DNA of 64,000 nucleotides from NCBI GenBank assembly GCA_963841905.1, contig CAWJEM010000011.1, positions 4,064 through 68,063 on the forward strand. Direction: 5' to 3'. The DNA comes from an uncultured Acidobacteriota bacterium (GTDB taxonomy: Bacteria > Acidobacteriota > Vicinamibacteria > Vicinamibacterales > UBA2999). The notes beneath the pieces were generated by a model. It saw only the letters and a program-made list of their open reading frames with translations, was not told the DNA's origin and did no database searches. Below, piece by piece: positions 4,956-59,827 of the stretch; the first letter of the stretch is position 1, and each line of letters begins with the position of its first letter. A program made the position numbers and the translations under genes.

Positions 4956-7172
4956 CTACTTCGGGAGGGCTTTGAGGAGACCCGCTGCGCGCGGCTCGGC
5001 GGGATCGAGCCGAAGCGCTTCCATCGCCTGAGTCCTGGCCTCAGGAAACCTGCCGAGTTCGGCGTACACCGCGGCGAGGTTGAGGTGGGCGCTGGCGCTC
5101 CCCGGGTCGAGGTGGCAGGCACGCTCGAGATAGGGACGAGCGGTGTGAGGATCGCCGTTCAAGAAGATCGCCAGACCCAGCTTCTCGTGCGCTTCGGCCC
5201 GGTCAGGCGCCAGCTTAACCGCGATCTGCAGCCATCGGATCGCTTCCAGCATGGCGTTTTGCTCGAGTGCCAGCGTCCCGAAGTCGAGCGCAGACTCCTC
5301 AGAAGTTTCTGCCACCGAGTCCGCCATTCCCGATAGTCGCCGGACGGCTTCGTCGGGGCGGCCGGCAAGGACGAGCGCGCGCACGAGCAGCGGGCCGGTG
5401 ACATTGATGTCGTACCGACTGTCGTATGCGGCTTCAAGATGTCCTACGGCTTCAGTGGCGCGCCCGGTCCTGAGCAGCGCTTCTCCGAGCCCGAGCCGGA
5501 TGGCAGGTCGCGGGCCGTCAATCGCGATCGCCTCGACCAGGAGGGCGGCCGCTTCATCCGAGCGCCCCGCATCGAGTAGCGCCTGCGCAACGCTGAACCG
5601 CAGAACCCCAGGGTGAAGATGATCGTGAGACACCTGTTCGACGTATCGGAGCGCATCGTCGAACGACCCTTGCTCGACGAGCCACACGGCCTTGCGCGTT
5701 TGTTCGCCTCCAATCCCATTGTCGAGTCCGAGATTTGAGAACACCACCAGCGAGGCCATCGCAAGGGCACCGGTTGGACGCAGCAGCGCGTTGAACTGGC
5801 GAGCGCGCACCAGGTCGAAACACCGAACGAGCGCGGCGCCAGCCGCGGCGCAGAGCGGCACGAATAGAGGCATCCGGTAGCGATCCGTCACAAAGAAGAG
5901 GACCACCGCTGCTCCGTACACCGGGACGAACATCGCCCAGACCCAATACCCGTGGCGGTTCTTGCGCAGCGCCGGCCAGAACAGGCCGAGCAGGCCAAGC
6001 GGCAGAAGTAGCCACGGACCGATTGCCAGGACGCGAAGGAAAGAGAATGGCTCGCGCGCGTAGAACGCGTAACTGTAGTTGAGTGGAACGTCCACGCGGT
6101 TGAGCAGAATCCTGATCTTGCGTATCCACAACCTCAGTGCATCGGCGGGATGTCCCGTCACCCAGTCGAATGCCCGCCACGCAAAGTAGCTGGAGACCTC
6201 TCCGGGAGAAAGGCTGCGACCCGTACTCGACTCCGCGACGCGAGTCGAATCGTTGGCCTGTCCGGCGATCGATGGAGTGATGCCCGGCACTGGTGTGTAA
6301 GTCCCGTCAGCGCGATCATGGTTGCCGATGTAGAGATTGAGCCCGCCGTGCGAGGCAATCACGACGGCGTCTCCCGACACCGCGTAGTTGCGTGCCGCGT
6401 TGGCTGCGAGGACGGCGAGCAGGGATGCCACCAGCACCGCACCGCGGTTGACCCGAGCCTGCCGCCCCGCCTTCGCCAAGGCTTCCGCCTTCGCCAACGC
6501 TACGGCGGACAAGACGGCGGGCAAGCACTGGTGGACAAATACAACAGCGGCTGCCGCCACAGCAAACACCAGCGCATTGGGTCGATTGAGCGCGAGCAAC
6601 CCCAGTGACGCGCCAGCGACGGCAAAGGCGCCCGTCCCACCACCCGCCATCGACCGCGTGAGAGCGTAGAGAGCACACGACACGAGGAACGGATCCAATG
6701 CAGACTGGAGGATCAGGACTTCGTTGAACGCGAAGATGCCTGTCAGAATCGCGAGTCCGGCAGCGACAAGAGCCGCCCGTTCGCCAAACCAATGCCGAGC
6801 GGTGGCGAAGAGTAATCCCACCGCCGCGGCCCCGAGAGCGATCTGGACCAGTTGCGCCGCAAGCAACGATCCCCCGACCGCAAACACGGCCGCGAGGAAG
6901 TAGACATACAACGGCGACACGAAGAACGCGCCAATGGGCGCAAACACGCCCTCCGCGGCGACTCGCTGACTGAGGGTGACGTAGTACGCGGTGTCGAGTT
7001 CGCCGTGCGGCTGCAGCAATGGGTGGTTCCAAAGCTGCATGAGCACGACCACCTTGACGACGAAGGCCGCTGCCACGATCAACGCGACCCTTCGCCAAGG
7101 GAGGTCCGTGATCGCATGAGCGCCATCGCCCGCGTCAACAACGTCGCGTCGTTCTGCTTGGTGTCGCGCCAA
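4956..7172 (-). CDS. Membrane GT-C-type (ArnT/PMT-like) glycosyltransferase fused to C-terminal TPR repeats
   Basis: The 760-aa ORF has a long multi-pass hydrophobic N-terminal region and C-terminal TPR-like repeats (..EAHEKLGLAIFLNGDPHTARPYLERACHLDP..). The ORF-track start at 7238 lies inside repeat W-B. The in-frame TTG at 7172 is an alternative, so the start is uncertain. Confidence 0.65.
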   Translation of the reverse strand: MARHQAERRDVVDAGDGAHAITDLPWRRVALIVAAAFVVKVVVLMQLWNHPLLQPHGELDTAYYVTLSQRVAAEGVFAPIGAFFVSPLYVYFLAAVFAVGGSLLAAQLVQIALGAAAVGLLFATARHWFGERAALVAAGLAILTGIFAFNEVLILQSALDPFLVSCALYALTRSMAGGGTGAFAVAGASLGLLALNRPNALVFAVAAAAVVFVHQCLPAVLSAVALAKAEALAKAGRQARVNRGAVLVASLLAVLAANAARNYAVSGDAVVIASHGGLNLYIGNHDRADGTYTPVPGITPSIAGQANDSTRVAESSTGRSLSPGEVSSYFAWRAFDWVTGHPADALRLWIRKIRILLNRVDVPLNYSYAFYAREPFSFLRVLAIGPWLLLPLGLLGLFWPALRKNRHGYWVWAMFVPVYGAAVVLFFVTDRYRMPLFVPLCAAAGAALVRCFDLVRARQFNALLRPTGALAMASLVVFSNLGLDNGIGGEQTRKAVWLVEQGSFDDALRYVEQVSHDHLHPGVLRFSVAQALLDAGRSDEAAALLVEAIAIDGPRPAIRLGLGEALLRTGRATEAVGHLEAAYDSRYDINVTGPLLVRALVLAGRPDEAVRRLSGMADSVAETSEESALDFGTLALEQNAMLEAIRWLQIAVKLAPDRAEAHEKLGLAIFLNGDPHTARPYLERACHLDPGSASAHLNLAAVYAELGRFPEARTQAMEALRLDPAEPRAAGLLKALPK

Positions 7173-7178
7173 CGGCAA

Positions 7179-7309
7179 GGTTTCCGGGGTTCCAGGGTTC
7201 CAGGGTTCCAGAGTTCCAGAGTTCCAAGGTTCAATCAAGGTTCATGGTTGCCATTCAGTATCTAGGAACCCTGGAACTTTGGAACTTTGGAACCTTGGAA
7301 CTTTCGAAG
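7179..7309. repeat. Word array W-B: 5 x GTTCC words then 5 x GGAAC words, period 8, forming inverted arms
   Basis: GTTCC starts at 7189, 7197, 7205, 7213 and 7221, plus two degenerate copies. GGAAC starts at 7265, 7273, 7281, 7289 and 7297. It lies between divergent genes. Confidence 0.9.
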
Positions 7310-7332
7310 TAAAGTCCCGCCAGGGGACCGTC

Positions 7333-8703
7333 ATGAAACTCCGTTCCTGGCTCTGGTCGGTGCTCGTCGCCTGCCTGCTGGCGCCGGTTGCGGCCCAGCC
7401 GTCCGCAGAGATCTCATTCGCGCTGACCGGCGACTCCATCATCACCCGGCGCCTCGCGGTGTACGCCGAACCGGCCTTCACGCGCATCATCGACGTCATC
7501 CGGAATGCCGACGTCGCCTTCACGAACCTCGAAATGCTCTTCCACGACTACGAGCCGTATGCGATGAGCGCGAGCGGCGGCACGTACATGCGCGCCGAGC
7601 CCGCGCTCGTGAAGGAGCTCGTGTGGGCGGGGTTCGATCTGGTGTCGCGAGCGAACAATCACTCCGGCGACTACGGCGTTCTCGGGATGAACTTGACGAC
7701 CAAGTACGTGGCCGAAGCCGGCCTCGTACAGGCGGGCGTCGGTCAGAGTCTGGCAGAAGCTCGTGAGGCCAAATTTCTGGAGACACCCAAAGGTCGCGTC
7801 GCGCTCATCTCGATCGCGTCAACCTTCCCCGACCATTCGCGAGCGGGCCGTACGCGCGGCGACATGCCCGCGCGACCGGGTTTGAACCCACTCCGTTTCG
7901 AAACCATCACGACGGTGACGGCGGAGCGGCTCGAAACGCTGAAGCAGATCGCCGGCGAGATCAACGGCCGTCCGGTCACTGCGACCGGCGACTCCTACAC
8001 ATTCTTCGGCCGCCGCTTTACCGTCGGCGCACAACCCGGAATTCGCACCGAGCCCAACAAGGAAGACCTCACCGAGATCGCCGCGGTCGTCAGGAGCGCT
8101 TCCGGCCTCGCGGACTACACGATCGTGACGATTCACGCCCACGAGGGCGGGCGCGATCGTCTGCTTCCGGCCGACTTTCTCGTCACGTTTGCTCGTGCGA
8201 TGGTCGACGCGGGCGCTGACATGTTCGTTGGCCACGGTCCACACGTCTTGCGCGGAGTCGAGATCTACAAGGGCAAGCCGATACTCTATAGCCTCGGCGA
8301 CTTCGTCTTCCAGAACGAGACGCTCCTGCGGCTGCCCAGTGAGAATTACGAGCCGTACGAACTCGGCGCGGCCTCACACGTCAACGACTTCAACGACGCA
8401 CGCTACAACTTCGACAAGACCGGCTTCCCTGCCGATCGGATGATCTGGGAAGCCGTGGTCGCGGTCCCGAAGTTTCGCGGTGAGCAGCTGATGGAGCTCG
8501 CGTTTCATCCCATCACCCTGGGCTTCGGCCAATCGCGCAGCGTGCGCGGCCGGCCGATGTTCGCCGAGGGCGAGCTCGGTCAGAAGATTCTCGGTGACTT
8601 GGTGAAGTTGTCTGCCGCGATGGGTACGAAGATCACCATTCGCAACGGCATCGGCTACGTCGAGCTCCGCGCCGCTGATCAGAGTTCCAGGGTTCCCAAC
8701 TAA
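7333..8703 (+). CDS. CapA/PGA_cap family metallophosphatase-like protein, secreted
   Basis: Signal peptide MKLRSWLWSVLVACLLAPVAAQ begins at ATG 7333. Family motifs SRANNHSGDYG and TIHAHEGGRD are present. The ORF-track start at 7279 lies inside repeat W-B. Confidence 0.75.
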   Translation: MKLRSWLWSVLVACLLAPVAAQPSAEISFALTGDSIITRRLAVYAEPAFTRIIDVIRNADVAFTNLEMLFHDYEPYAMSASGGTYMRAEPALVKELVWAGFDLVSRANNHSGDYGVLGMNLTTKYVAEAGLVQAGVGQSLAEAREAKFLETPKGRVALISIASTFPDHSRAGRTRGDMPARPGLNPLRFETITTVTAERLETLKQIAGEINGRPVTATGDSYTFFGRRFTVGAQPGIRTEPNKEDLTEIAAVVRSASGLADYTIVTIHAHEGGRDRLLPADFLVTFARAMVDAGADMFVGHGPHVLRGVEIYKGKPILYSLGDFVFQNETLLRLPSENYEPYELGAASHVNDFNDARYNFDKTGFPADRMIWEAVVAVPKFRGEQLMELAFHPITLGFGQSRSVRGRPMFAEGELGQKILGDLVKLSAAMGTKITIRNGIGYVELRAADQSSRVPN

Positions 8704-8792
8704 GGTTCCAGAAGTTCCAAGGTTCCAAAGTTCCAAGGGCAGCGTTCAAGTTTGAACTCTGGAACCCTGGAACCCTGGAACCTTGGAACTCT
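8681..8792. repeat. Word array W-C: 6 x GTTCC then 4 x GGAAC, with an apex mini-palindrome GTTCAAgtTTGAAC
   Basis: GTTCC starts at 8684, 8692, 8705, 8714, 8722 and 8730. The apex is at 8744-8757. GGAAC starts at 8761, 8769, 8777 and 8785. It fills the spacer between convergent genes and overlaps the stop codon at 8701-8703. Confidence 0.9.
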
Positions 8793-11789: not shown

Positions 11790-11795
11790 TATAAT
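11790..11795 (+). promoter_or_regulatory. Candidate -10 box TATAAT for the amidohydrolase gene
   Basis: gTGatTATAAT lies 20 nt upstream of the ATG at 11816. No clear -35 element was seen. Confidence 0.3.
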
Positions 11796-11815
11796 CCCGA
11801 ACCTCGGGGGTCATC

Positions 11816-13543
11816 ATGAGAAGAATTACGCGTGGCGAGTTTCTTGGCTTCGGTGCGGCGCTGGCTGGAGGCATTGGCGCAGCGGCCACCCGAACCGAGA
11901 CGTTTGGTGCCAACGTCGCAGCTCAGTCTCCACCTGGCGGCCCGGCCGCTGAGCCGGACCTGGTCGTAATCAATGCCCGGGTCTACACAGTCGACCAAGC
12001 TCTGCCCCGCGCCGAGGCGTTTGCTGTACGGAACGGCCGGTTCGCCGCCGTTGGCTCAACGGCCGACGTCCGAAATCTGGCAAGTGCGCGCACGCGCGTC
12101 ATCGATGCTCAACAGGCTACGGTCACTCCCGGATTCATCGATACGCACTGTCATGTGAGCGGTGTCAACGAGCTTTACAGTGTCAATGCCAACGTCCGGC
12201 GAGTGCGCGAGCTGCTGGGCAACCTTCGGCAGAAAGCGGACAAGACACCTTCCGGCCAGTGGGTGAGCGCGGTCATGTTCGACGACACCAAGCTCGATGT
12301 TCCCCTCACACGCCAGCATCTAGACGAGGTTTCACGGGAGCATCCGATCGTCGTTGGTCATCGGGGCGGACACACCAGCTGGTACAACTCGAAGGCGTTC
12401 GAACTGGCGGGCATCTCGAAGAGCACGCCCGATCCCGATCACGGCCGCTTCTTTCGCGATTCACAAGGCGAGCTGACCGGACGCGTCGCCGAGCTGGCCC
12501 GCAACGTCTTCAGCAAGGTCGGAACCCGCGAAACCTTCACGCCCGAACAAGAACGCGAACGCGCACGAAACGGGATGCGTCACATCTCGGAGCTCCTCAC
12601 CGCCGCCGGTCTGACCTCGGTCCACGATGCCGGCGCCGATCGGGATCGGATCGTGGCGTACGAGGACGCGCGGACGAACGGCGAGCTGCGTCATCGCGCC
12701 TGTTTTCTCGTTCGCGGAAACTCGACATTTTCGGGATTCAAGGCCGCTGGTATTCACTACGGCTTCGGTGACGAGTGGATTCGCGTCGGCGGCGTCAAGT
12801 ACGGCGCCGACGGCTCGGCGTCGGAGCGCACGATGCGAATGAGCACTCCCTACGTCGGCACCAACGACTACGGCATCCTGACGATGACGCAGGCGGAGAT
12901 TGACGAGGCCGTCGAGGACGCGCATCGGCACAACTTCAGGGTCGCCATTCACGCCAACGGCGACGTCACGATCGACATGGTCCTCCAGGCCTACGAGCGG
13001 GTTTTGGCAAAGTTCCCGCGACCAGACACGCGCCACCGTATTGAACACTGCTCGCTGGTCAATCCCGACCTGCTTCGCCGCATCAATGCGCTTGGCGCCA
13101 TTCCAACACCCTTCTGGACCTACGCGCACTATCACGGGGAGAAGTGGAAGGAATACGGGCCCGAGAAGATGCAGTGGATGTTCGCCCACAAGTCGTTTCT
13201 CGAGACGGGCATCCCCGTTCCCGGGGCCTCCGACTACGGCCCGGGTCCCTTCGAACCGTTGATGGCTATCCAGAGCATGGTCACGCGCAAGGACTACAAC
13301 GGCAACGTCTGGGGGGCCCGACAGCGCGTGACCGTCGACGAAGCGTTGACCATCGCAACCAGACACGGCGCGTTTGCCTCACATGAGGAGCACGTGAAAG
13401 GATCGATCACGGCCGGAAAACTCGCCGATTTCGTGATGCTTGAACGCGACCCCCACGACGTCGACCCCGATACGATCAAGGACATCAAGGTCGTCCGAAC
13501 AGTGGTGGGAGGCCGGACGGTTTTCCCCAAGTCGGAATCCTGA
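11816..13543 (+). CDS. Amidohydrolase family protein (Amidohydro_3-like) with a Tat-type signal
   Basis: 575 aa. The N-terminus is MRRITRGEFLGFGAALAGG. Metal-binding motifs PGFIDTHCHVSG and VAIHANGD are present. Confidence 0.8.
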   Translation: MRRITRGEFLGFGAALAGGIGAAATRTETFGANVAAQSPPGGPAAEPDLVVINARVYTVDQALPRAEAFAVRNGRFAAVGSTADVRNLASARTRVIDAQQATVTPGFIDTHCHVSGVNELYSVNANVRRVRELLGNLRQKADKTPSGQWVSAVMFDDTKLDVPLTRQHLDEVSREHPIVVGHRGGHTSWYNSKAFELAGISKSTPDPDHGRFFRDSQGELTGRVAELARNVFSKVGTRETFTPEQERERARNGMRHISELLTAAGLTSVHDAGADRDRIVAYEDARTNGELRHRACFLVRGNSTFSGFKAAGIHYGFGDEWIRVGGVKYGADGSASERTMRMSTPYVGTNDYGILTMTQAEIDEAVEDAHRHNFRVAIHANGDVTIDMVLQAYERVLAKFPRPDTRHRIEHCSLVNPDLLRRINALGAIPTPFWTYAHYHGEKWKEYGPEKMQWMFAHKSFLETGIPVPGASDYGPGPFEPLMAIQSMVTRKDYNGNVWGARQRVTVDEALTIATRHGAFASHEEHVKGSITAGKLADFVMLERDPHDVDPDTIKDIKVVRTVVGGRTVFPKSES

Positions 13544-13545
13544 TC

Positions 13546-13663
13546 AAAGTTCCGGTTCACGGTTCCAAGGTTCCAAGGTTCCAACGTTCAATGGTGCTCG
13601 GCCAAGATTCGGAACCCTGGAACTTGAACTTTGGAACTCTGGAACCGTGGAACTTTGGAACCC
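13546..13663. repeat. Word array W-D: GTTCC arm (4 copies plus 2 degenerate) and GGAAC arm (6 copies plus 1 degenerate)
   Basis: GTTCC starts at 13549, 13562, 13570 and 13578. GGAAC starts at 13611, 13619, 13633, 13641, 13649 and 13657. The array begins 3 nt after the stop at 13541-13543. Confidence 0.9.
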
Positions 13664-32441: not shown

Positions 32442-33866
32442 ATGGCCGACCTTCACGTCGTCATTCTGGCTGCCGGCAGAGGCACTCGCATGAAGTCCGA
32501 GTTGCCGAAGGTGCTGCATCGAGTCGCGGGCCGCGCGTTGATCGATCGCGTCGTCGATACCGCCGGTTCGCTGGCGCCTCACTCGACGACTGTCGTCGTA
32601 GGTCATGGTGCCGACCTCGTGCGATCTCACCTCGCAGGAAGGGCCAATACCCACTTCGTGGTGCAAGAACCCCAGTTGGGGACGGGGCATGCGCTCCTTC
32701 AAACCGCGCCGCTGCTTTCGGGCAAGAGTGGGACCGTCGTCCTCCTCTCGGGGGATGTTCCGCTTCTTTCACGGCAGGCCCTACGCGGGCTGGTCGACAC
32801 TCATCACGAGGCAAACGCCGCCGCGACGGTTCTGACGGCGGTTGCCCCGCGTCCGTTCGGGTACGGTCGCATCGTCCGGTCGCAGGGTCGAATCGTACGC
32901 ATCGTCGAGGAGCAGGACGCCTCCCCCGTACAGCGAAAGATCACCGAGATCAATTCGGGCATCTACGCCTTCGCGCTGGAGTCTTTGTTCGGGGCCCTCG
33001 ACAAGGTGGCCTCTCACAATGCGCAGGGAGAGTACTACCTGCCGGACCTGGTCGCGATTTACCGACGGCGGCGGCGCGTCGTCACCACGTTCAGCGTGGC
33101 GGATCCGGTTGAGATTCGTGGAATCAACAGTCGAACAGAACTTGCTGAGGTAAGCCTGATGGTGCGACAGCAGAAGAACGAAGAGCTCATGGCGGCCGGC
33201 GTCACGTTGATCGATCCGGCGACCACCTACATCGACTCCGATGTGGTCATCGGGCCCGATACGGTCGTCTATCCGTGCGTGTTCATCGAAGGCACGACAC
33301 AAATTGGAGCCGCCTGCGAGATTCACTCGGGAAGCCGGATCGTCAACTCGACCATTGGAGATCGCGCCATCATTCGCAACCACACGGTGATCTCGGATGC
33401 GATCGTCTCCGAAGGCGCGTCGGTCGGCCCGTTTGCGCACCTCCGACCCGGCGCCAATCTGGGCGAGAAGGCGCGGGTGGGTAACTTCGTGGAGCTGAAG
33501 AAGACGACCATGGGCGCTGGCAGCAAGGCAAATCACCTGGCGTATCTCGGGGACACCACCATTGGCGCCGAAGTCAACGTCGGCGCTGGGACGATCACCT
33601 GCAACTACGACGGCGCCGCCAAGCACCAGACGGTCATTGGAGACGGCGCTTTTATCGGCAGCAACTCGACGTTGGTCGCCCCGGTTACGATTGGTCGGGA
33701 AGCTTATGTGGCGGCCGGCTCCGCCATCACGACCGATGTCCCCCCGGGCTCGCTCGGAATCGGACGCGCAAGACAGGAAAACAAAGAGGGGTGGGTCGAG
33801 GCGCGACGGGATAAAGTAACAAGTTCAAAGTCCAAAGTGCAAAGTCCCGATACATCGGCAGAGTAG
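32442..33866 (+). CDS. glmU: Bifunctional UDP-N-acetylglucosamine pyrophosphorylase / glucosamine-1-phosphate N-acetyltransferase
   Basis: The N-terminal motif VILAAGRGTRM and C-terminal left-handed beta-helix hexapeptide repeats are present. Length is 474 aa. Confidence 0.9.
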   Translation: MADLHVVILAAGRGTRMKSELPKVLHRVAGRALIDRVVDTAGSLAPHSTTVVVGHGADLVRSHLAGRANTHFVVQEPQLGTGHALLQTAPLLSGKSGTVVLLSGDVPLLSRQALRGLVDTHHEANAAATVLTAVAPRPFGYGRIVRSQGRIVRIVEEQDASPVQRKITEINSGIYAFALESLFGALDKVASHNAQGEYYLPDLVAIYRRRRRVVTTFSVADPVEIRGINSRTELAEVSLMVRQQKNEELMAAGVTLIDPATTYIDSDVVIGPDTVVYPCVFIEGTTQIGAACEIHSGSRIVNSTIGDRAIIRNHTVISDAIVSEGASVGPFAHLRPGANLGEKARVGNFVELKKTTMGAGSKANHLAYLGDTTIGAEVNVGAGTITCNYDGAAKHQTVIGDGAFIGSNSTLVAPVTIGREAYVAAGSAITTDVPPGSLGIGRARQENKEGWVEARRDKVTSSKSKVQSPDTSAE

Positions 33867-33934
33867 TGTTCATCCATTTCATGGCTTCATTCCGGACGCT
33901 TCACTTTGAACTTGTAACTTGTAACTTGTAACTC
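33814..33934. repeat. Word array W-K: CAAAGT-type words versus 3 x ACTTGTA, with a 13-bp perfect long-range stem
   Basis: ACAAGTTCAAAGT (33819-33831) pairs with ACTTTGAACTTGT (33903-33915). (ACTTGTA)x3 lies at 33910-33930. The left arm lies in the last codons of glmU. Confidence 0.85.
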
Positions 33935-35789: not shown

Positions 35790-35860
35790 CGGTGGCCAGT
35801 GGGCCAGTGGCCAGTGATCGGAGCCGCACCGACCACTGACCACCGACCACTGATCACTGG
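35790..35860. repeat. Word array W-H: GGCCAGTG words versus ACCACTG words
   Basis: The left arm is cggtGGCCAGTGGGCCAGTGGCCAGTGATCgg. The right arm is ccGACCACTGACCACCGACCACTGATCACTGG. CCAGTGATC and GATCACTGG form a 9-bp perfect pair. Confidence 0.85.
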
Positions 35861-38142: not shown

Positions 38143-38230
38143 CCACAAAGGCACGAAGGAAAGGAACTCTCTCACTTTCGTGACTTCGTGACTTCGTCGC
38201 TACGTCGTGGCTACGTCGTGGCTACGTCGT
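38143..38230. repeat. Word array W-I: a CACGAAG word, 3 x TTCGTSRC (period 8), then about 3 x GCTACGTCGTG (period 11)
   Basis: GGCACGAAGG lies at 38150-38159. TTCGTGAC TTCGTGAC TTCGTCGC lies at 38177-38200. GCTACGTCGTG, about 3 copies, lies at 38199-38230. It sits between convergent genes. Confidence 0.85.
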
Positions 38231-41465: not shown

Positions 41466-41566
41466 AGGGCGTAGGGCATGGGGCTTAGGGCAAAGGGCAG
41501 GGTTGAGGGTTTAGGGAAATGCATCTCTGTTCCCGCTAAGCCCTATGCCCTGTGCCCTACGCCCTG

Positions 41567-49849: not shown

Positions 49850-49924
49850 ACGGTCGTGTGGACGCACGCTGTCGCCCGCACGCGCTCGCGACAAACGCGC
49901 ACGTGCTCCCGACACTTACGCACT

Positions 49925-50027
49925 CGCCCAATCCGATCGCCCAATCGCCCAATACAATCACTCAATCGCGGAATCACCCATTGCAACCACCCAATCACCC
50001 ACTCACTCATTCACTAGATCCCAATGG
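49925..50027 (+). repeat. Word array W-P: single-stranded C/A-rich octamers of the (C/G)NCCCAAT type running up to the jag start codon
   Basis: The 8-mers are CGCCCAAT x3, CACTCAAT, CGCGGAAT, CACCCATT, CACCCAAT, CACCCACT, CACTCATT, CACTAGAT and CCCAATGG. They are interrupted by the 5-mers ccgat, acaat and gcaac. No complementary arm lies nearby. Confidence 0.85.
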
Positions 50028-50473: not shown

Positions 50474-50516
50474 GGCACGGAAACACGCGCTTCCGTGCCT
50501 TGTCTTTCATCGTTTA
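50474..50516 (+). terminator. Rho-independent terminator after jag
   Basis: The stem is GGCACGGAA-acacgcgc-TTCCGTGCC (9-bp perfect), followed by the T-rich run ttgtctttcatcgttt. Confidence 0.65.
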
Positions 50517-50561: not shown

Positions 50562-51917
50562 ATGTTTGACACCGATGACACGATTGTCGCAATCGCGACG
50601 CCGATCGGACGCTCCGGGCTGGGTGTCGTCCGGCTCAGTGGTCCCGCATCGGCGACGATCGCGCGCGATCTGGTTCATCGCACCCCGCCGTTCGTCGCTC
50701 GACATGCGACGCTAGCCCGCCTGCGCACGCTGGGCGTGAGTGACGAAGTGATCGTCACGGTCTTCGTCGCGCCTCACTCGTATACCGGCCAGGAGGTCGC
50801 TGAGATCAGCGTGCACGGCAGCCCAATGGTCTTGCAGGGCGTGCTGCGTGAGGCGATCGCGAACGGGGCGCGTTTGGCAGAGCCCGGTGAGTTCACGCTG
50901 CGCGCGTTTTTGAACGGCAAACTCGATCTCGTGCAGGCCGAAGCCGTCGGAGACTTGATCGAAGCGGTCACGCCGCTCCAGGCTCGGGCGGCGTTCGATC
51001 AACTTCAAGGCACGCTGACCGTCCGGATTGCCGGGCTCGAGCAACGCCTCTTTGATTTGACGGCGCGTCTCGAGGCTTCCCTCGATTTTCCGGACGAAGG
51101 CTATCACTTTGTGCAGCGCCAGGCGGCCGGCAACGAGATCAGCGCGTTGACCGAGCAAGTCGCAACAATCCTGGCGCAAGCTGGTCGCGGGCGATTGATA
51201 CGAGAAGGCGCGAGTGTTGCGATTGTCGGGACGCCCAACGTCGGCAAGTCGAGCTTGTTCAACGCGCTGCTCAACGCCGAGCGCGCCATTGTCACGCCGA
51301 TTCCGGGCACGACGCGCGATCTGCTCACCGAACGCGCCGACATTCGTGGCCTGTCGGTCGGCCTGGTTGATACCGCCGGTCTCCGCGATTCGAATGACCT
51401 CGTCGAACAGGAAGGCATCGCTCGCGCGCACCGAGCGGCCGACACGGCCGACCTCAGGCTCGTCGTTCTTGATCGATCGCGGGCGCTTTCTGCGGCCGAT
51501 CGGGCCCTGATTGCCTCGTTGTCACCAGATGCGCGAGTGCTCGTCGTCAACAAAACGGATCTGCCGGCTGTATGGACGGTCGATCAGGAAGCCCTCGCGG
51601 ACGCGGTTGCGGTCTCCACGAAGACGGGCGAGGGACTGCCGCAATTGATGGACCGAATGGCACAGGCACTGGGGGAGCAAAGCGAGACCCATGACGATCC
51701 GCTCGTCACGAACGTGCGCCACATCGCCTTGCTGGAATCGACTCGAGCTGCTCTGAGTCGCGCGCTTGACGCGCTGTCGCCAACGTCGTCACCCTCCGAA
51801 GAGTTCATTCTTGCGGACCTGCAGGAGGCGGCGTCCCACCTTCAAGAAATCACGGGCAAGCGAACCACCGACGATCTGCTGCGTCACATCTTCGAGCGTT
51901 TTTGCATTGGTAAATGA
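50562..51917 (+). CDS. mnmE: tRNA modification GTPase MnmE
   Basis: Contains the G1 motif GTPNVGKSSL and the C-terminal CIGK. Confidence 0.95.
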   Translation: MFDTDDTIVAIATPIGRSGLGVVRLSGPASATIARDLVHRTPPFVARHATLARLRTLGVSDEVIVTVFVAPHSYTGQEVAEISVHGSPMVLQGVLREAIANGARLAEPGEFTLRAFLNGKLDLVQAEAVGDLIEAVTPLQARAAFDQLQGTLTVRIAGLEQRLFDLTARLEASLDFPDEGYHFVQRQAAGNEISALTEQVATILAQAGRGRLIREGASVAIVGTPNVGKSSLFNALLNAERAIVTPIPGTTRDLLTERADIRGLSVGLVDTAGLRDSNDLVEQEGIARAHRAADTADLRLVVLDRSRALSAADRALIASLSPDARVLVVNKTDLPAVWTVDQEALADAVAVSTKTGEGLPQLMDRMAQALGEQSETHDDPLVTNVRHIALLESTRAALSRALDALSPTSSPSEEFILADLQEAASHLQEITGKRTTDDLLRHIFERFCIGK

Positions 51918-52023: not shown

Positions 52024-53898
52024 ATGCCTAAATTCGATGTGGTTGTGGTCGGCGCAGGCCATGCGGGCGTGGAAGCGGCCTGGGCGGCGGCGCGACTTGG
52101 CTGCACGGTGGCCCTTTGTACGCTTTCCAAGCAGACAGTGGCCCTGATGCCCTGCAACCCTGCCATCGGCGGAACCGCTAAAGGCCATCTAGTCAGAGAG
52201 ATAGACGCTCTTGGCGGGCTGATGGCCCGCGCCATCGACGCCACCGGACTGCAGTTCAAGATGCTCAACCGCAGCCGTGGCCCCGCGGTGTGGTCACCTC
52301 GCGCCCAAGCCGACAAGCTGGGCTATAGCGAGTGGGTTCGTCGCGCCTTGGAGGGTCAGTCCATCATTGAATGGAAACTCGGTCGTGTCGGTCGGGTTCT
52401 CCTCGACGCAGGTCGGGTGACTGGTCTCGCCTTTGAGGATGGGTCCGAGATGCAGTGCGCGTCGCTCGTTATCACGACCGGGACTTTCCTCAACGGTCTC
52501 GTTCATGTCGGGAGGGAGCAGCGGCCAGCGGGTCGCGCCGACGAACCGCCATCGCGCGACCTCGCAGAATCGGTCAAGGCGCTGGGTTTTAGGTGGGGCC
52601 GCCTCAAGACCGGAACGCCGCCACGCCTTTCGCGGCGCTCGATCGATTGGTCGGCTGCAGTCGGCCAGGGAGTGTTCCACGTGGAACGGGGCGATGACCC
52701 AGCGGCTCCATTCTCATTCATCACAACCGACACGCCTGTAAACCGCATCGTCTGTCACCTTGTCCACACGACGGACGAGGTCCACGGTCTCGTCCGAGCC
52801 CACATCCACGAATCGCCTTTGTTCAATGGCCAGATCGCCGGAATCGGCCCGAGGTACTGTCCGTCACTCGAGGACAAGGTCATGCGGTTTCCAGAACGGG
52901 ACCGCCATCAGATCTTCCTGGAGCCCGAAGGTATCGACGTGGACGAGATCTACGTCAACGGTTTTTCGATGTGCCTGCCCGGCCCGATTCAGCAGCGTTT
53001 GGTGCGCGCCCTGCCCGGCCTCGAGTCAGCTGAGATGCTGCGACCAGGCTACGCGGTCGAGTACGACTTCATCCAGCCAACCGAGTTGCGAGCGACACTC
53101 GAAACCCACAGGGTCGAGGGGTTGTTTCTAGCGGGCCAGATCAACGGGACGTCTGGCTACGAGGAGGCGGCGGGGCAGGGGATTGTCGCCGGCATTAACG
53201 CCGCGAAGCGCGCGCGGCGCGAATCGCCGCTGATTCTCAGACGAGACCAGGCCTATATCGGCATCATGATCGATGACCTGGTGACCAAGGGGTGTCTCGA
53301 GCCCTATCGGATGTTCACGTCACGGGCCGAGCATCGACTCTTGCTTCGGGTCGATAACGCGGATCTGCGGCTGACGCCGATCGCCCGAGACGCCGGCTTG
53401 GTCGACAACGACCGCTGGGAGCGCTTTGCGTCACGGCGAGAGCGCTTCGAGTGCAACGTCGAGACGCTTCAACGGGTGACCATTCAGTTCACCGGCTCCA
53501 GGACCCCGGTCGCACAAGTCCTGAAACGGTCGGACGTTACACTGGCAGGACTGATCGAGTCGGGTGCCACCTCGATCGAACCCGGCCCCCCAGAGGACCG
53601 CGACCTGGACCTGATCTCGGCAGAAACCGCCATCAAGTACGAGGGTTATCTCCGGCGGCAGGTGGCAGCTGTCGAGCGGAGTCAACGCCAGGAGCACGTT
53701 GGAATTCCGGCGTCGTTTCCGTTCGATCGGGTTCCGGGTCTTTCTCGCGAGCTCGTTCAGCGCTTCTCGGAAACGCGCCCCGAAACTCTTGGTCAAGCGC
53801 TTCGGATTCCGGGAGCGACGCCAGCCGCGGTCGCCGTGCTGTCCGCCTATCTCCGACGGTGGACCGCTGAGCCCATTAGCTCGGAGGCTCTCGGATGA
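52024..53898 (+). CDS. mnmG: tRNA uridine 5-carboxymethylaminomethyl modification enzyme MnmG
   Basis: FAD motif [13 protein letters not shown] is present. Length is 624 aa. Confidence 0.95.
52674..52687. other. parS-like 14-bp perfect palindrome GTTCCACGTGGAAC inside mnmG
   Basis: The 16-mer tGTTCCACGTGGAACg compares with the classical parS consensus tGTTNCACGTGAAACa. It encodes ..VFHVER... Confidence 0.7.
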
Positions 53899-54560
53899 CC
53901 GCTCGCGAGTTTCGCGAGCGGTTACACCGCCGCGCGCGACGCGCTGGCGTCCCGATTGACGCAGACTTGACGCTGGCTTTTGAGCGCTACTACGACCTTC
54001 TCACGCGGTGGAACGCCAAGATCAACTTGACGTCGCGTCTGGAACCGGCCGGCCAGGATGAGAGCATCGACCGCCTCCTGATTGAACCGCTGGTGGCCGC
54101 GCGACACATTCAACCGCAGAGCCGAACGTTGATCGATATCGGTTCCGGGGGCGGATCACCAGCGATCCCTCTCGTGCTTTCGACGCCGCGTCTCCACCTG
54201 CGAATGGTTGAGGCCAAGACGCGGAAGGCGGTGTTCCTGCGCGAGGCGATTCGAGAGCTTCGAATCGGACGCGCCGAGGTTGAGATGTCTCGCTTCGAGG
54301 AGTTGCTCACGCGTCCCGAGCTGCATGAGGCACTGGATGTGGTAACGGTTCGCGCTGTGCGAATGGAGCCGCGCACGCTTCTGAGTCTGCAAGCGTTTCT
54401 CAAGCCCGGTGGCCAGGTGTTTCTCTTTCGTGGGCCTGGCGGCGGCGATGGCGCGGGGACCATTACGCCGCCGCTGTCTTGGACGGCTACCTATCCGCTC
54501 GTCGAATCACTCCGCTCGCGCCTGGTCGTTTTGGAAAAGAAGCCGATCGGAAGGGGCTAA
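53895..54560 (+). CDS. rsmG: 16S rRNA (guanine527-N7)-methyltransferase RsmG
   Basis: The SAM motif [15 protein letters not shown] is present. It overlaps the mnmG stop by 4 nt. Confidence 0.9.
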
Positions 54561-54561
54561 C

Positions 54562-54575
54562 GTTCCACGTGGAAC
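54562..54575. other. parS-like 14-bp perfect palindrome GTTCCACGTGGAAC upstream of parA
   Basis: It begins 2 nt after the rsmG stop. The core is identical to the copy at 52674. Confidence 0.75.
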
Positions 54576-54578
54576 ACT

Positions 54579-54710
54579 GGGCGGGGAACAGGGCACAGGG
54601 CAAGGGCACAACGAACGGCACAACGAAACGGCACAACGAAAAGGGCGGAGCTTGTGGCATCCTGCGCCCTGCGCCCTGCGCCCTGCGCCCTGCGCCCTGC
54701 GCCCTGCGCC
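54579..54710. repeat. Composite word array W-F: a GGGCA-type arm, 3 x GGCACAACGA(n)C units of 12/13/14 nt, and 7 perfect CTGCGCC heptamers
   Basis: The GGGCA-type arm gggcggggaaCAGGGCACAGGGCAAGGGCAC lies at 54579-54609. The GGCACAACGA(n)C units GGCACAACGAAC, GGCACAACGAAAC and GGCACAACGAAAAG lie at 54605-54643. (CTGCGCC)x7 lies at 54662-54710. Confidence 0.9.
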
Positions 54711-54812
54711 CTGAGAACGCTTGCGCGCTGCGATTCCCAGGCGTAAGCTGTGACCCGGCAGGTCTCCCGCAAACGCCTCTAATTCGATGAATTAGGTCAA
54801 AAACCAGAAAAA

Positions 54813-55688
54813 ATGATGCCTCCGGAATTTGGCGCGCCCACCCCTCACCCCGCTCATCACCCTAAACAGCTGACTGCAAAGGTGATAGCTGTGACGAATC
54901 AGAAAGGAGGCGTCGGCAAGACCACCACCGCCATCAACCTCGCCGCCGCACTCGCCCTCAACGGCCACTCGACCCTGGTCATCGACGTCGACCCACAAAG
55001 CAATGCCACGAGCGGCCTGGGGCTCAAGGGACAGACCGCGACCGGCGGCACGATCTATCAGGCGCTCATGACCGGGACGCTATCAGTAGACGATTTCATC
55101 CTTCCCACAACAGTCGAGCGCCTGAGCATCGTTCCCGCGACCCGCGATCTGGCAGGTGCGGAGATCGAGCTCATTCCGCTCGAGCAGCGCGAACGACGTC
55201 TCCGCGCTTTCGCCGAGCCACTTCGATCACGCTTCGAATTCATCATCATCGACTCGCCGCCGTCGCTGGGCTTACTGACCCTCAACGCGCTGGTCGCGGC
55301 CGACACCGTGCTGATCCCTCTCCACTGCGAGTACTTTGCCCTCGAGGGCTTGGCGGATCTCGTGGCAACACTCCGCCGCGTCCGCGCCGCCCTCAACCCC
55401 GGCCTCGACATCGAAGGCGTCCTCCTGACGATGAACGACGAACGGACGAATCTTGGCCAACAAGTTGCGCGTGACGTGCGGGAGTTCTTCAAGGAGAAGG
55501 TCTACACCACGGTGATCCCGCGCAACGTCCGGCTTGCCGAGGCGCCGAGTCACGGCCAGTCGGTGATGACCTACGACCCGCGCTCGCGTGGCGCTGAAGC
55601 GTACGCCGCGTTGGCGAGAGAAGTCTGCACGCGCAACCCGCGCGTGGCCCTCAATCAGACCGCCGGCGCGATGGAGGCCAGTGTTTAG
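54813..55688 (+). CDS. parA: Chromosome partitioning ATPase ParA/Soj
   Basis: The deviant Walker A VIAVTNQKGGVGKTT is present. The start is uncertain (ATG at 54813 or GTG at 54882). Confidence 0.9.
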   Translation: MMPPEFGAPTPHPAHHPKQLTAKVIAVTNQKGGVGKTTTAINLAAALALNGHSTLVIDVDPQSNATSGLGLKGQTATGGTIYQALMTGTLSVDDFILPTTVERLSIVPATRDLAGAEIELIPLEQRERRLRAFAEPLRSRFEFIIIDSPPSLGLLTLNALVAADTVLIPLHCEYFALEGLADLVATLRRVRAALNPGLDIEGVLLTMNDERTNLGQQVARDVREFFKEKVYTTVIPRNVRLAEAPSHGQSVMTYDPRSRGAEAYAALAREVCTRNPRVALNQTAGAMEASV

Positions 55689-55691
55689 TTG

Positions 55692-55835
55692 AAAGGTTCC
55701 AGGGTTCCAAGGTTCTGGTCGAGGCTCACGCGCGAACAGAACTATGGAACCGTGGAACTTTTGGAACCCTGGAACCCTGGAACATTGGAACCCTGGAACA
55801 TTGGAACCTTGGAACCGTGGAACCTTGGAACCTTG
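55692..55835. repeat. Word array W-E: 3 x GTTC(C) words versus 11 x GGAAC words (period 8), between parA and parB
   Basis: GGAAC starts at 55746, 55754, 55763, 55771, 55779, 55787, 55795, 55803, 55811, 55819 and 55827. The left arm aaaGGTTCCagGGTTCCaaGGTTCtgg lies at 55692-55718. Confidence 0.9.
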
Positions 55836-55847
55836 AAAAGGTGAACG

Positions 55848-56741
55848 ATGCCTGATCGCAAACCCGCCCTCGGCAAAGGCCTGAGCGCACTGATTCCCGA
55901 TCTGCCGGACCCGGCGCCGTCGCCCCGCTCCTCACTCGACGTCGACGTCGATCTGTTGGAGCCGAACGATTACCAGCCGCGGGGCGCGATGCACGACGAG
56001 CGGCTCGAGGAGCTGGCGCGATCGATCAAAGCGAACGGCGTGATTCAGCCGATCATCGTGCGGCCGCTCGCCACTCCACCGGGTGCCTCTCCGCGCTTTC
56101 AGATCATCGCCGGTGAGCGACGGTGGCGTGCCGCCCAGCGCGCGGGTCTGACCAGCGTGCCGGTGGTGCTCAAAGACATTGGAGGAGATGAACGGAAGCG
56201 CCGGCTGGAGATCGCGCTCATCGAGAATGTTCAGCGCGAGGACCTCAATCCCATCGAGGAAGCCCACGCATACCAGCGACTCGTCAACGAGTTCGAGATG
56301 CGCCATGAGGACGTCGCGACCGCAGTCGGCAAGGATCGATCGACAATCGCCAACACGCTTCGGCTGCTGAAACTCCCCGCCGAGGTCAGAGAGGAAGTCG
56401 CGTCTGGACAACTATCGATGGGTCACGCGCGCGCCATCGTGTCTCTCGCCGGCGAAGCCGATCAACGGCGCGTTGCTCGTGAGGTGCTGTCACGCGGTCT
56501 CTCCGTTCGCGAGACCGAGGCCATCGTCAAGAAGACGGCCGCGCCGGGTGTCGCCAAGAACACTCCCAGAGCAGAGACCAAGGACGTGCACACGCGCGCA
56601 GCCGAGGAGCAGCTGCGTCTCGCGCTTGGCACGACCGTCACGATCAAGCGCCGTGGCAAGGGCGGCGCCATCGAGATCGCATACCGCAACGACGACGAAC
56701 TACAGCGGCTGTACGAACACCTCACCGATTCGCGACGCTGA
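55848..56741 (+). CDS. parB: Chromosome partitioning protein ParB/Spo0J
   Basis: Contains MPDRKPALGKGLSALIP.., ..IIAGERRWRAA.. and ..LIENVQREDLNPIEEA... Confidence 0.95.
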   Translation: MPDRKPALGKGLSALIPDLPDPAPSPRSSLDVDVDLLEPNDYQPRGAMHDERLEELARSIKANGVIQPIIVRPLATPPGASPRFQIIAGERRWRAAQRAGLTSVPVVLKDIGGDERKRRLEIALIENVQREDLNPIEEAHAYQRLVNEFEMRHEDVATAVGKDRSTIANTLRLLKLPAEVREEVASGQLSMGHARAIVSLAGEADQRRVAREVLSRGLSVRETEAIVKKTAAPGVAKNTPRAETKDVHTRAAEEQLRLALGTTVTIKRRGKGGAIEIAYRNDDELQRLYEHLTDSRR

Positions 56742-59185: not shown

Positions 59186-59731
59186 ATGTCATTGAGAACA
59201 TCGGCGACGCGGTACGCGAAAGCCCTGCTCGCGGTTGCCATCCAGGAATCCGATCCGGCTCGAATCGAAGCCGACCTCAGCGAGATTGTCGGCGCCATGA
59301 CGTCGTCATCCGAGCTGCGTCGCGCCATGCTCAATCCTGCTGTGCCGCAGAGTGCGCGCGTCAGCCTCGTGCGAGCTCTCAGCGATCGAGCTGGGGTTCA
59401 AGCGCCGGTCGCCAAGCTCCTGGTCATGCTCGCGGAACGAGGGCGCCTCGAGCTGCTACCCGACCTGCTCGATGTCTACCGCGAGCGGTTGTTGGCGCAT
59501 TCGAACATCGTCCGCGGCCGCGTTACCTCCGCTGTGCCGCTCGCGCCTGAGCGTGTGCATGCGTTGGAGGAGAGCCTGGGAGCGCGAACGGGCAAGCACG
59601 TGCAGCTCGACCCGGCCGTCGACCCGGCGCTCATCGGCGGGGTCGTCGCAAGGATCGGGAGCACGGTGTATGACGGCAGCATTCGGATGCAGCTTCAGAA
59701 GATGCGGCAGCAGATGGTCAGTGATCAGTGA
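59186..59731 (+). CDS. atpH: F0F1 ATP synthase subunit delta (OSCP)
   Basis: 181 aa containing ..RYAKALLAVAIQ.. and ..DPALIGGVVARIGSTVYDGSIRMQL... Confidence 0.9.
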   Translation: MSLRTSATRYAKALLAVAIQESDPARIEADLSEIVGAMTSSSELRRAMLNPAVPQSARVSLVRALSDRAGVQAPVAKLLVMLAERGRLELLPDLLDVYRERLLAHSNIVRGRVTSAVPLAPERVHALEESLGARTGKHVQLDPAVDPALIGGVVARIGSTVYDGSIRMQLQKMRQQMVSDQ

Positions 59732-59760
59732 TCAGTGATCAGGGCGCAGGGCGCAGGGCG
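59719..59760. repeat. Word array W-G: (CAGTGAT)x3 directly followed by (CAGGGCG)x3
   Basis: Perfect heptamer tandems lie at 59719-59739 and 59740-59760. The array overlaps the atpH stop (59729-59731). Confidence 0.9.
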
Positions 59761-59827
59761 CAGAACGGGCAGCGACCGGTAGCCGGCAACCACAGAGGTT
59801 TTGGCAAGGAATCAGGGAACTGCAAAC

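Follow-up and report, generated by a model that had tools for sequence, protein, structure and literature searches.

Tandem repeats with 7-nucleotide (nt) units have long been known to be over-represented in bacterial genomes and, to our knowledge, neither the cause nor the function of these repeats is understood. Another group of bacterial intergenic repeats, the repetitive extragenic palindromes (REPs) and bacterial interspersed mosaic elements (BIMEs) of Enterobacteria and Pseudomonas, are GC-rich imperfect palindromes that occupy co-directional and convergent spacers, are transcribed, and serve as stabilisers of mRNA 3' ends or as attenuators; in REPs, a single conserved sequence of 20-40 bp is present in dispersed copies, and is mobilised by the REP-associated tyrosine (RAYT) transposase. 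Here we analyze a block of short tandem repeats that lies between the parS site and the start of parA in a 64,000-nt stretch of DNA from an uncultured bacterium of the phylum Acidobacteriota (hereinafter, "the window" refers to this whole stretch). The block is an intergenic heptamer/octamer repeat hairpin, a known but poorly understood kind of element, with units outside the known consensus. It is probably one local representative of "inflated hairpins", a genome-wide class of slippage-expanded stem-loops that are probably transcribed and whose sequence is unconstrained, and it is not a regulator dedicated to parA.

The closest kind of repeats described so far are the heptamers of Xanthomonas (GGGAATC) and Nostoc (GGGGAYT, the cyanobacterial short tandemly repeated repetitive, or STRR, sequences), which number ~185 per genome, with ~90% of them intergenic (Rehm et al. 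2015, PMC4692102). These repeats are located, on average, 28 nt from the upstream stop codon, form 70-75 convergent inverted pairs per genome, are transcribed and, at shared sites, have different lengths in Xcc and Xac; no function has been established for them, although regulation of transcription or replication through G-quadruplexes (G4) has been proposed for the GGGAATC repeats of Xanthomonas (PMC4692102). Like these repeats, the block consists of tandem 7-nt units with a tract of three to four G residues (for the + strand, GGGCACA x4; for the - strand, GGGCGCA x7.6), and the resemblance extends to the intergenic bias, the proximity to the upstream stop codon, the housekeeping neighbours, the variation of units at the same site among relatives, and the pairing of inverted arrays in convergent orientation, such that the G-rich array comes first whichever strand is read; in Xanthomonas and Nostoc, dozens of such pairs can form stem-loops. 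The units found here, GGGCNNN and CTGCGCC, depart from the Xanthomonas and Nostoc consensus (GGGNATC / GGGGAYT); closer to it is the unit GGGATTC in the paired heptamer arrays of L001, a more distant Acidobacteriota genome that contains the nearest ParA locus (68% identical) among the GTDB genome matches listed. Furthermore, unlike in Xanthomonas and Nostoc, there are several unrelated unit families here, with periods of 7, 8 and 9 and mostly free of G-tracts, the phylum is Acidobacteriota, and the comparison of relatives provides direct evidence for an origin of arrays from inflated simple stems.

A heptamer repeat is also known in the 5' untranslated region (UTR) of the hmw1A gene of Haemophilus influenzae, where (ATCTTTC)n forms a hairpin with a G-rich arm that is processed by RNase III, and expression is inverse to repeat length (PMC12721329). 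By analogy, this repeat would be the nearest mechanistic precedent for a role of the block as a double-stranded RNA (dsRNA) stem; in both cases, a heptamer repeat of mutable number makes up one arm of a long hairpin, the other arm being G-rich. However, the hmw1A repeat is part of an adhesin gene's 5' UTR, whereas the block is located upstream of the predicted promoter of a housekeeping operon. The block and the similar arrays described below resemble REPs and BIMEs as GC-rich imperfect palindromes that fill intergenic or intercistronic spacers, but are locally generated tandem arrays with locus-specific units, in which no conserved head motif was seen. Similarly, these arrays share with intrinsic terminators a GC-rich stem-loop located within ~20 nt of a stop codon, but there is no U-tract, the loop and the stem are far larger, and some of the elements are found inside operons, 5-13 nt from the next start codon. 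No reports of such arrays in Acidobacteria were found in full-text literature searches.

The DNA surveyed consists of the origin-proximal 64 kb of the genome, that is, the window, together with ~20-kb syntenic loci from relatives that were reached through ParA homologues with 79-98% identity (loci L081-L089 and L210). The genes around the block are all on the + strand, in the order mnmE (50562-51917), mnmG (52024-53898), rsmG (53895-54560), parA (54813-55688) and parB (55848-56741); in the syntenic loci, dnaA and dnaN are encoded a few kb upstream, which identifies the locus as the replication-origin region. Tandem arrays were called across the whole window with Tandem Repeats Finder (TRF), and conservation was assessed in an alignment of 8 lineages (alignment A1). 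The locus consists of the following elements:

54558-54560: stop codon of rsmG, TAA.
54562-54575: parS, a perfect palindrome, GTTCCACGTGGAAC, one base past the rsmG stop; the conserved left anchor of the variable block, found in the same position in L081-L089 and L210.
54579-54610, + strand: 5' arm, G/purine-rich, with 4-5 degenerate GGGCNNN heptamers (TRF); base-paired to the 3' arm in the minimum-energy fold of either strand.
54605-54643, + strand: three tandem units of 12, 13 and 14 nt (GGCACAACGAA followed by an A-run) on the inner side of the 5' arm (TRF).
54644-54660, + strand: loop or apical segment between the arms, GGGCGGAGCTTGTGGCATC, which forms a small apical hairpin in the + strand minimum-energy fold.
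54661-54713, + strand: 3' arm, C/pyrimidine-rich, with seven perfect CTGCGCC units and a partial eighth (TRF and comparison with relatives).
54721-54749, + strand: predicted parAB promoter, with -35 TTGCGC at 54721-54726, a 17-nt spacer and -10 TAAGCT at 54744-54749 (conservation in A1).
54791-54801, + strand: leader motif ATTAGGTCAAA, with TAGG.C.AA invariant in A1; 12 nt upstream of the parA start.
54813-55688, + strand: parA, identified by the ParA/CbiA Pfam hits of its homologues; public gene calls start at the second ATG, 54816.

The three stacked features that an earlier note on this DNA had described between parS and parA are all present. The G-rich segment 54579-54609 reads GGGCGGGGAACAGGGCACAGGGCAAGGGCAC and is called by TRF as GGGCACA x4.0 (85% match); the region 54605-54643 reads GGCACAACGAAC / GGCACAACGAAAC / GGCACAACGAAAAG (period 13, 2.9 copies, 96% match); and the seven perfect CTGCGCC copies at 54662-54710 fall within a TRF call of CCTGCGC at 54661-54713 (7.6 copies, 100% match). 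The double CTGCGCC unit is matched 8 times in the window, compared to 0.18 +/- 0.39 matches per dinucleotide shuffle, and none of the 100 shuffles reached 8, so the tract is well beyond chance expectation. As that note also recognized, the arms are partially complementary: GGGCACA pairs with TGCGCCC at 6 of the 7 positions of each unit, with a single mismatch, A.C for the + strand and a G.U wobble for the - strand; the arms pair in the folds of both strands. For the 252-nt rsmG-parA spacer, the folding z-scores are -2.6 (+ strand) and -4.1 (- strand), and the block itself (element H) folds at -71.1/-83.8 kcal/mol compared to -55.1 +/- 4.7 kcal/mol for shuffled sequences. Each CTGCGCC unit contains the self-complementary GCGC, and single arms fold as slipped hairpins with energies of -19 to -23 kcal/mol.

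Several familiar kinds of elements were sought in or around the block. There is no T-run after either arm on either strand, and the promoter/terminator scanner was silent at the block; the parS palindrome (14-16 bp, tGTTNCACGTGNAACa) has no match within the repeats; and in a search against Rfam 15, the only hit in the window is a tRNA, with a permissive search of 54400-55900 adding only chance hits of miRNA hairpins to the parA-parB element. A CRISPR array was ruled out because there are no unique spacers and the units are too short. There are no exact protein matches on record to the ParA of the window (in its 291-aa or 290-aa form), to RsmG or to P0129, a homologue that matches the ParA of the window exactly, starting at the second Met. 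A further perfect parS (GTTCCACGTGGAAC) lies within the coding sequence of mnmG, at 52674-52687; it is 1.9 kb upstream of the copy that follows rsmG.

Comparison of the orthologous sites shows that the frame of the locus is fixed, with the rsmG stop, parS, the predicted promoter and parA all retained, whereas the intervening block is hypervariable. The relatives are listed with the distance from parS to the -35 element:

Window: 144 nt; 5 GGGC units, three 13-mers, 7 CTGCGCC.
L210 (nt identity 96.4% in rsmG, 97.1% in parA): 155 nt; 10 GGGC units, a single GGGCACAACGAA, 1 CTGCGCC.
L081/L082 (nt identity 95.5% in rsmG, 96.8% in parA): 68 nt; 7 GGGC units, right arm cut to GAGCCCTGA, 0 CTGCGCC.
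L083/L084 (84-87% nt identity): 291 nt; 15 GGGC units, GGGCAGACGAA units, a ~90-nt loop, ~9 degenerate NNCGCCC units.
L085 (parA 77% nt identity): 51 nt; repeat-free.
L086-L089 (ParA protein 79-84% identical): 12-21 nt; repeat-free.

Thus, as had been suspected from the perfect heptamers, the tract is slippage-prone and not invariant: there are seven CTGCGCC copies in the window, one in L210 and none in L081/L082, with the flanking genes 95.5-97.1% identical at the nucleotide level, and two copies among the ~9 degenerate units of L083. The units themselves differ as well (GGGCACA, CAGGGCT, AGGGCCA and AGGGCAT at the orthologous site), and the homologous inner units of L083, GGGCAGACGAA/GGGCAGAA, form an array with a period of 19 and 3.1 copies. 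The window and L210 have in common AGCTTG(T/C)GGCATCC of the loop segment, and the 3' terminal GCCCTGA is conserved even in the repeat-free L085. From this comparison, the seven perfect heptamers appear to be a recent one-arm expansion of a unit that is present once in a ~97% identical relative, and the terminal GCCCTGA is the sole ancestral piece of the block. The series in which the A-run grows by one per unit is indeed present, as the earlier note had it, but reads as a lineage-specific local triplication of an older unit that is single in L210. Single-base lengths of homopolymers in these repeats, such as the A-runs, need caution because in the long-read ENA assemblies ERZ250395xx (L088, L089 and L210) dnaA, yidC, mnmE and mnmG are fragmented, which suggests frameshift errors.

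Assemblies and gene annotations bear traces of the block: the short-read contig L084 starts within it, and in L081/L082 an automatic gene call of 59 aa on the minus strand overlaps it (L081:2466-2645). An assembly artefact was ruled out given that arrays of this kind recur in independent JGI and ENA assemblies. A coding sequence was rejected as well because the open reading frames (ORFs) across the block are not conserved, as the block itself is not conserved.

The most specific proposal in the earlier note was that the copy number of the heptamer changes the geometry of the parAB promoter. The motif TTGC / 17 nt (once 18) / CGTAAGCT is invariant in 8 lineages, where in the window its two parts occupy 54721-54726 and 54742-54749; judging from this invariance and the fixed spacing, TTGCnn / 17 nt / TAAGCT is likely a sigma-70-like parAB promoter. 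A generic consensus scanner misses it, as it is too distant from the E. coli consensus, and its 15-mer CCAGGCGTAAGCTGT has at least 120 chance matches in metagenomes, none of which, among the matches listed, is beside a parS or a parA leader. The repeats stop 7 nt upstream of the -35 element, and the promoter motif is wholly downstream of the block in all 8 lineages, so copy number cannot alter the spacing between the -35 and -10 elements. The earlier note had itself named a transcription start downstream of the block as an outcome contrary to its proposal, and the predicted position of the promoter would agree with such a start. The only geometric effect of copy number is on the distance between parS and the promoter, which goes from 12-21 nt to 68-291 nt; it is a speculation that this distance could matter if parS-bound ParB represses parAB. 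Downstream of the promoter, the leader motif ATTAGGTCAAA is nearly invariant across lineages with ParA proteins 79-98% identical, and is located too far upstream for a Shine-Dalgarno sequence.

These data bear on the possibility that the block is a contingency locus, in which heptamer copy number switches or tunes parAB transcription through promoter geometry. Close relatives do differ in copy number, the tract is only 7 nt from the -35 element and sets the distance from parS, the loading site of ParB, to the promoter, and in H. influenzae the hmw1A heptamers tune expression (PMC12721329). However, the tract lies outside the -35/-10 interval of a promoter that is itself read from conservation, the genes on either side of the tract are rsmG and parA, parAB is a housekeeping operon and not a surface, antigenic or restriction-modification locus, the block is invariant in two near-clonal pairs of relatives, and like arrays are found beside gyrA, glmS, atpA and pcrA, so that there is no specificity for parA. 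We therefore consider a contingency function hardly probable.

Indeed, arrays with periods of 7-9 were detected in 12 of the 34 intergenic spacers of at least 30 nt in the window and in none of its coding sequence, which makes up roughly 91% of the window. By orientation, arrays are present in 7 of the 25 co-directional spacers, in 3 of the 4 convergent ones and in 2 of the 5 divergent ones, numbers that are too small for a test. In 10 of 11 elements, for which the distances were taken by hand from array and gene coordinates, the array starts 0-19 nt past a stop codon. As judged by the Pfam assignments of flanking genes, the arrays adjoin housekeeping genes, namely, glmU-glmS, glmS-pcrA, gyrB-gyrA, rsmG-parA, parA-parB and atpH-atpA; arrays are also located between yidC and jag. 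Apart from the block, the arrays include:

7178-7232 / 7272-7308: AGGGTTCC / TGGAACTT.
8702-8738 / 8754-8789: AAGGTTCC / GAACCCTG.
13561-13589 / 13618-13661: GGTTCCAA / TGGAACTT.
33821-33847 / 33909-33933: AAGTCCA / AACTTGT.
35792-35816 / 35827-35859: GTGGCCA / CACTGAC.
38177-38230: tandem arrays of TTCGTGAC and TCGTGGCTACG; TRF calls no inverted pair.
41466-41499 / 41536-41566: AGGGCAT / GCCCTAC.
55693-55715 / 55745-55835, + strand: AAGGTTCC x2.9, loop, TGGAACCT (TGGAACCY) x11.2, in the parA-parB spacer, ending 13 nt before the parB start.
59718-59763: TCAGTGA x3.6, then CAGGGCG x3.4 (the reverse complement of the heptamer of the block), in atpH-atpA.

Most of these arrays consist of a 5' arm and a reverse-complementary 3' arm that together form a long imperfect hairpin, with 9 such paired elements in the window, and nine elements fold far below mononucleotide-shuffled sequences (for instance, element A at -75.9 compared to -41.0 +/- 3.8 and element B at -52.2/-59.5 compared to -24.2 +/- 3.5 kcal/mol). 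A few families of units are found at more than one unlinked locus: GGTTCCAR (four loci), AGGGCNN (three), CAGTGRT (two) and CACGAAG (two or three). In all 8 of the independent loci with skewed arms, the 5' arm is the purine/G-rich one (elements E, G and H of the window; L001:5684-5770; L083; L085; L089:17242-17320), hence this arm comes 5' whichever strand is read. A number of arrays stop 5-13 nt short of the next start codon, within operons that are normally co-transcribed, and are therefore probably transcribed and would not be efficient terminators. No U-tract follows any of the arms, and canonical terminator motifs are not enriched in the window (12 found compared to 13.6 expected).

The parA-parB array illustrates how fast these elements change through the gain and loss of whole units. 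Its right arm contains 11.2 copies in the window, 4.8 in L210, 7 in L081/L082, 6 in L083 and 4 in L084. The last two loci encode identical ParA proteins and differ, over 1,645 nt, by 7 substitutions and one 17-nt indel; the indel corresponds to two octamer units plus one base of this array, and 5 of the 7 substitutions are in the same spacer.

The origin of the arrays can be traced in the jag-mnmE spacer. In the window, this spacer contains, at 50474-50499, a simple stem-loop with a 13-bp stem, GGCACGGAA-ACACGCGC-TTCCGTGCC. In L083 (2873-3009), between the same flanks, the stem is expanded into nested octamer arrays, (CACGGAAA)3 (GCACGAAG)3, followed by a loop and (CTTCGTGNN)3 (TTCCGGGC)3; in L085 (5778-5860), there is an unrelated hairpin of 9-mers, (GAGATCAGG) x4.4 / CTCCCTG-type; and L086-L089 have ordinary GC-rich stems. 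In this series, the post-stop stem-loop is conserved in position while its sequence turns over and, in some lineages, it has been inflated into mirrored arrays.

We propose that the block arose in the same manner. Under this scenario, a pre-existing intergenic stem-loop would undergo replication slippage, favoured by the GCGC core that would allow either strand to fold back out of register, and the rough mirroring of the arms would be maintained either by selection for pairing or because one arm serves as template for the correction of the other, as happens when quasi-palindromes undergo template switching. The block would be transcribed as the 3' end or as a read-through part of the mnmE-mnmG-rsmG transcript. 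If it acts at all, it might, less certainly, do so as a long imperfect dsRNA stem, a 3' stabiliser or insulator or a processing site of the RNase III type, in which case the ability to pair would matter rather than the exact sequence or copy number.

Several observations weigh against this interpretation. Elements E, G and H, which lie in co-directional spacers, fold 9-13 kcal/mol better on the antisense strand, with the mismatches A.C in the sense and G.U in the antisense orientation; this is not expected from selection acting on the sense RNA and fits better with a DNA-level or neutral process. A consistently better fold of the sense strand, which would be a sign of RNA-level selection, is ruled out by these three elements. 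The arms are often unequal (~5 compared to 7.6 units in H, 2.9 compared to 11.2 in I, and ~6 compared to ~1.5 in the H of L081), and the clear element A (7178-7308) is located between divergent genes, where there is no gene 3' end. The rsmG-parA block is identical within both near-clonal pairs, L081/L082 and L083/L084, the former pair differing by one substitution and zero indels; strain-level change is thus demonstrated for the class, by a sister array, but not yet for this block. Furthermore, slippage of arbitrary stems does not explain why a few unit families recur at unlinked loci, and transcription of the block, the position of the start site and RNA processing are all predictions from the nucleotide sequence.

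Some of the same evidence could be taken to mean that the arrays are neutral debris, in which hairpin-prone repeats of 7-8 nt expand by slippage in tolerant intergenic DNA, have no function, and form a hairpin only as a by-product of templated repair. Neither sequence nor copy number is constrained at the orthologous site, L085-L089 manage without the block, the arms are unbalanced and have A.C mismatches on the sense strand, arrays occur in spacers of every orientation, and the comparable repeats of Xanthomonas and Nostoc have no demonstrated function (PMC4692102). Nevertheless, the post-stop stem-loop of jag-mnmE keeps its position across lineages, which suggests a selected hairpin, the numbers of units in the two arms are often matched (4.5/4.5 in B, 3.9/3.6 in D, 4.9/4.3 in G, 3/3 + 3/3 in jag-mnmE of L083), and the polarity does not vary, the 5' arm being the purine-rich one at each of the skewed loci. 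On balance, neutrality appears to us a less likely but serious alternative, and the inflated hairpin with a probable life as RNA remains our preferred interpretation.

The heptamers also suggest G-quadruplexes, in which case the G-rich arms (on the + strand, the left arm; on the - strand, the complement of the heptamer tract) would fold as G4 and regulate transcription or replication. Canonical G3N1-7 runs are present on both strands, with 5 tracts at 54579-54609 (+) and 7 on the complement of 54661-54713; a G4 is predicted for the left arm on its own (-11.2 compared to -1.8 kcal/mol, with RNA parameters), all array-bearing orthologues contain at least four GGGC tracts in the left arm, and related heptamers form G4 in vitro (PMC4692102). 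Thus, the motif that the earlier note pointed out on the - strand is there, as a G3N4 pattern, and another one is present in the left arm on the + strand. The predicted folding of the heptamer tract does not follow suit: in the ViennaRNA G4 model, which uses RNA energy parameters only, (GGCGCAG)7 prefers the GCGC slipped hairpin (-23.1 kcal/mol) and, in the context of the block, the inter-arm hairpin wins (-83.8). Furthermore, the right arm of L081 keeps only ~2 tracts, and most sister arrays, including those with the units GGTTCCAR, CAGTGRT, CACGAAG and AAGTCCA, lack G3 tracts, so that G4 does not define the class. A G4 element is, accordingly, an improbable explanation of the block.

Still less support can be mustered for the units being iterated binding sites of a nucleoid-associated, ParB-related or post-transcriptional regulator protein. 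The sharing of a few unit families by unlinked loci would fit such an array, as would the parS half-site GGAAC contained in the octamer TGGAACCY, with the window adjoining the replication origin; the TAACTGA repeats of Beggiatoaceae have been proposed to be regulator sites (PMC4679880). However, the units at the orthologous site vary freely among relatives, at least five unrelated unit families would demand five binders, and the heptamer block is unlike parS, which makes this explanation highly improbable.

Some peculiarities of individual arrays in the window and the syntenic loci deserve mention. The spacer of element A (7101-7333), with AGGGTTCC x6.9 / TGGAACTT x4.6 and a folding energy of -75.9 kcal/mol, separates divergent genes, one encoding a PMT_2/TPR glycosyltransferase and the other a PGA_cap protein. 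The unit that occurs most often, TGGAACYT / GGTTCCAR (7178-7308, 8702-8789, 13561-13661, 55693-55835), contains the parS half-site core GGAAC and also resembles the -35 element of extracytoplasmic function (ECF) sigma factors, GGAACTT. In the glmU-glmS element, the left arm (33821-33866) falls in the last ~15 codons of the glmU ORF; apparently, the array has intruded into the C-terminal coding end of glmU or has lengthened it. The stop codon of atpH is within the TCAGTGA array, the unit of which contains TGA, so that all frames close within three units; the adjacent CAGGGCG x3.4 has no complementary partner arm, and L210 has 4.6 and 3.0 copies. The yidC-jag spacer contains C/A-rich arrays, CAATCGCC / CAATCACC, with periods of 8, 13, 21 and 29 (window 49863-50006 and L210:5029-5124), which have no G-rich partner arm and fold poorly on the + strand; this type is conserved in the window and L210. 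In L086, the gene of an IS110-family transposase that follows parB is flanked by inverted 9-mer arrays, CCGCAGATT x2.9 (11791-11816) and ATCTGCGGC x3.0 (13574-13600); the IS110 insertion may have split a repeat hairpin or may carry its own.

The most useful new element of this analysis is comparative: in close relatives with 77-97% identity in parA, the same sites are empty, contain a simple hairpin or are inflated into mirrored arrays, between invariant anchors. With this natural series, it becomes possible to test directly both the origin of the repeats, by stem inflation through slippage, and the roles that they may have in RNA processing or insulation. The series also carries a warning for annotation and assembly because such hypervariable blocks break short-read assemblies and generate spurious ORFs, and should not be taken for regulators specific to the adjacent genes. 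A bolder extension, which we regard as rather unlikely, is that sequence-independent inflation, operating across the lineage, turns ordinary intergenic stem-loops into mirrored arrays of 7-9-nt units whose 5' arm is always the purine-rich one. The long dsRNA stems so produced would serve as stability elements or processing sites of the RNase III type, and their rapid length polymorphism would tune the expression of the housekeeping cistrons on either side, with effects on the parA:parB ratio and on the spacing between parS and the promoter. If true, stem inflation would amount to a chromosome-wide layer of mutable regulation beyond the classical contingency genes.

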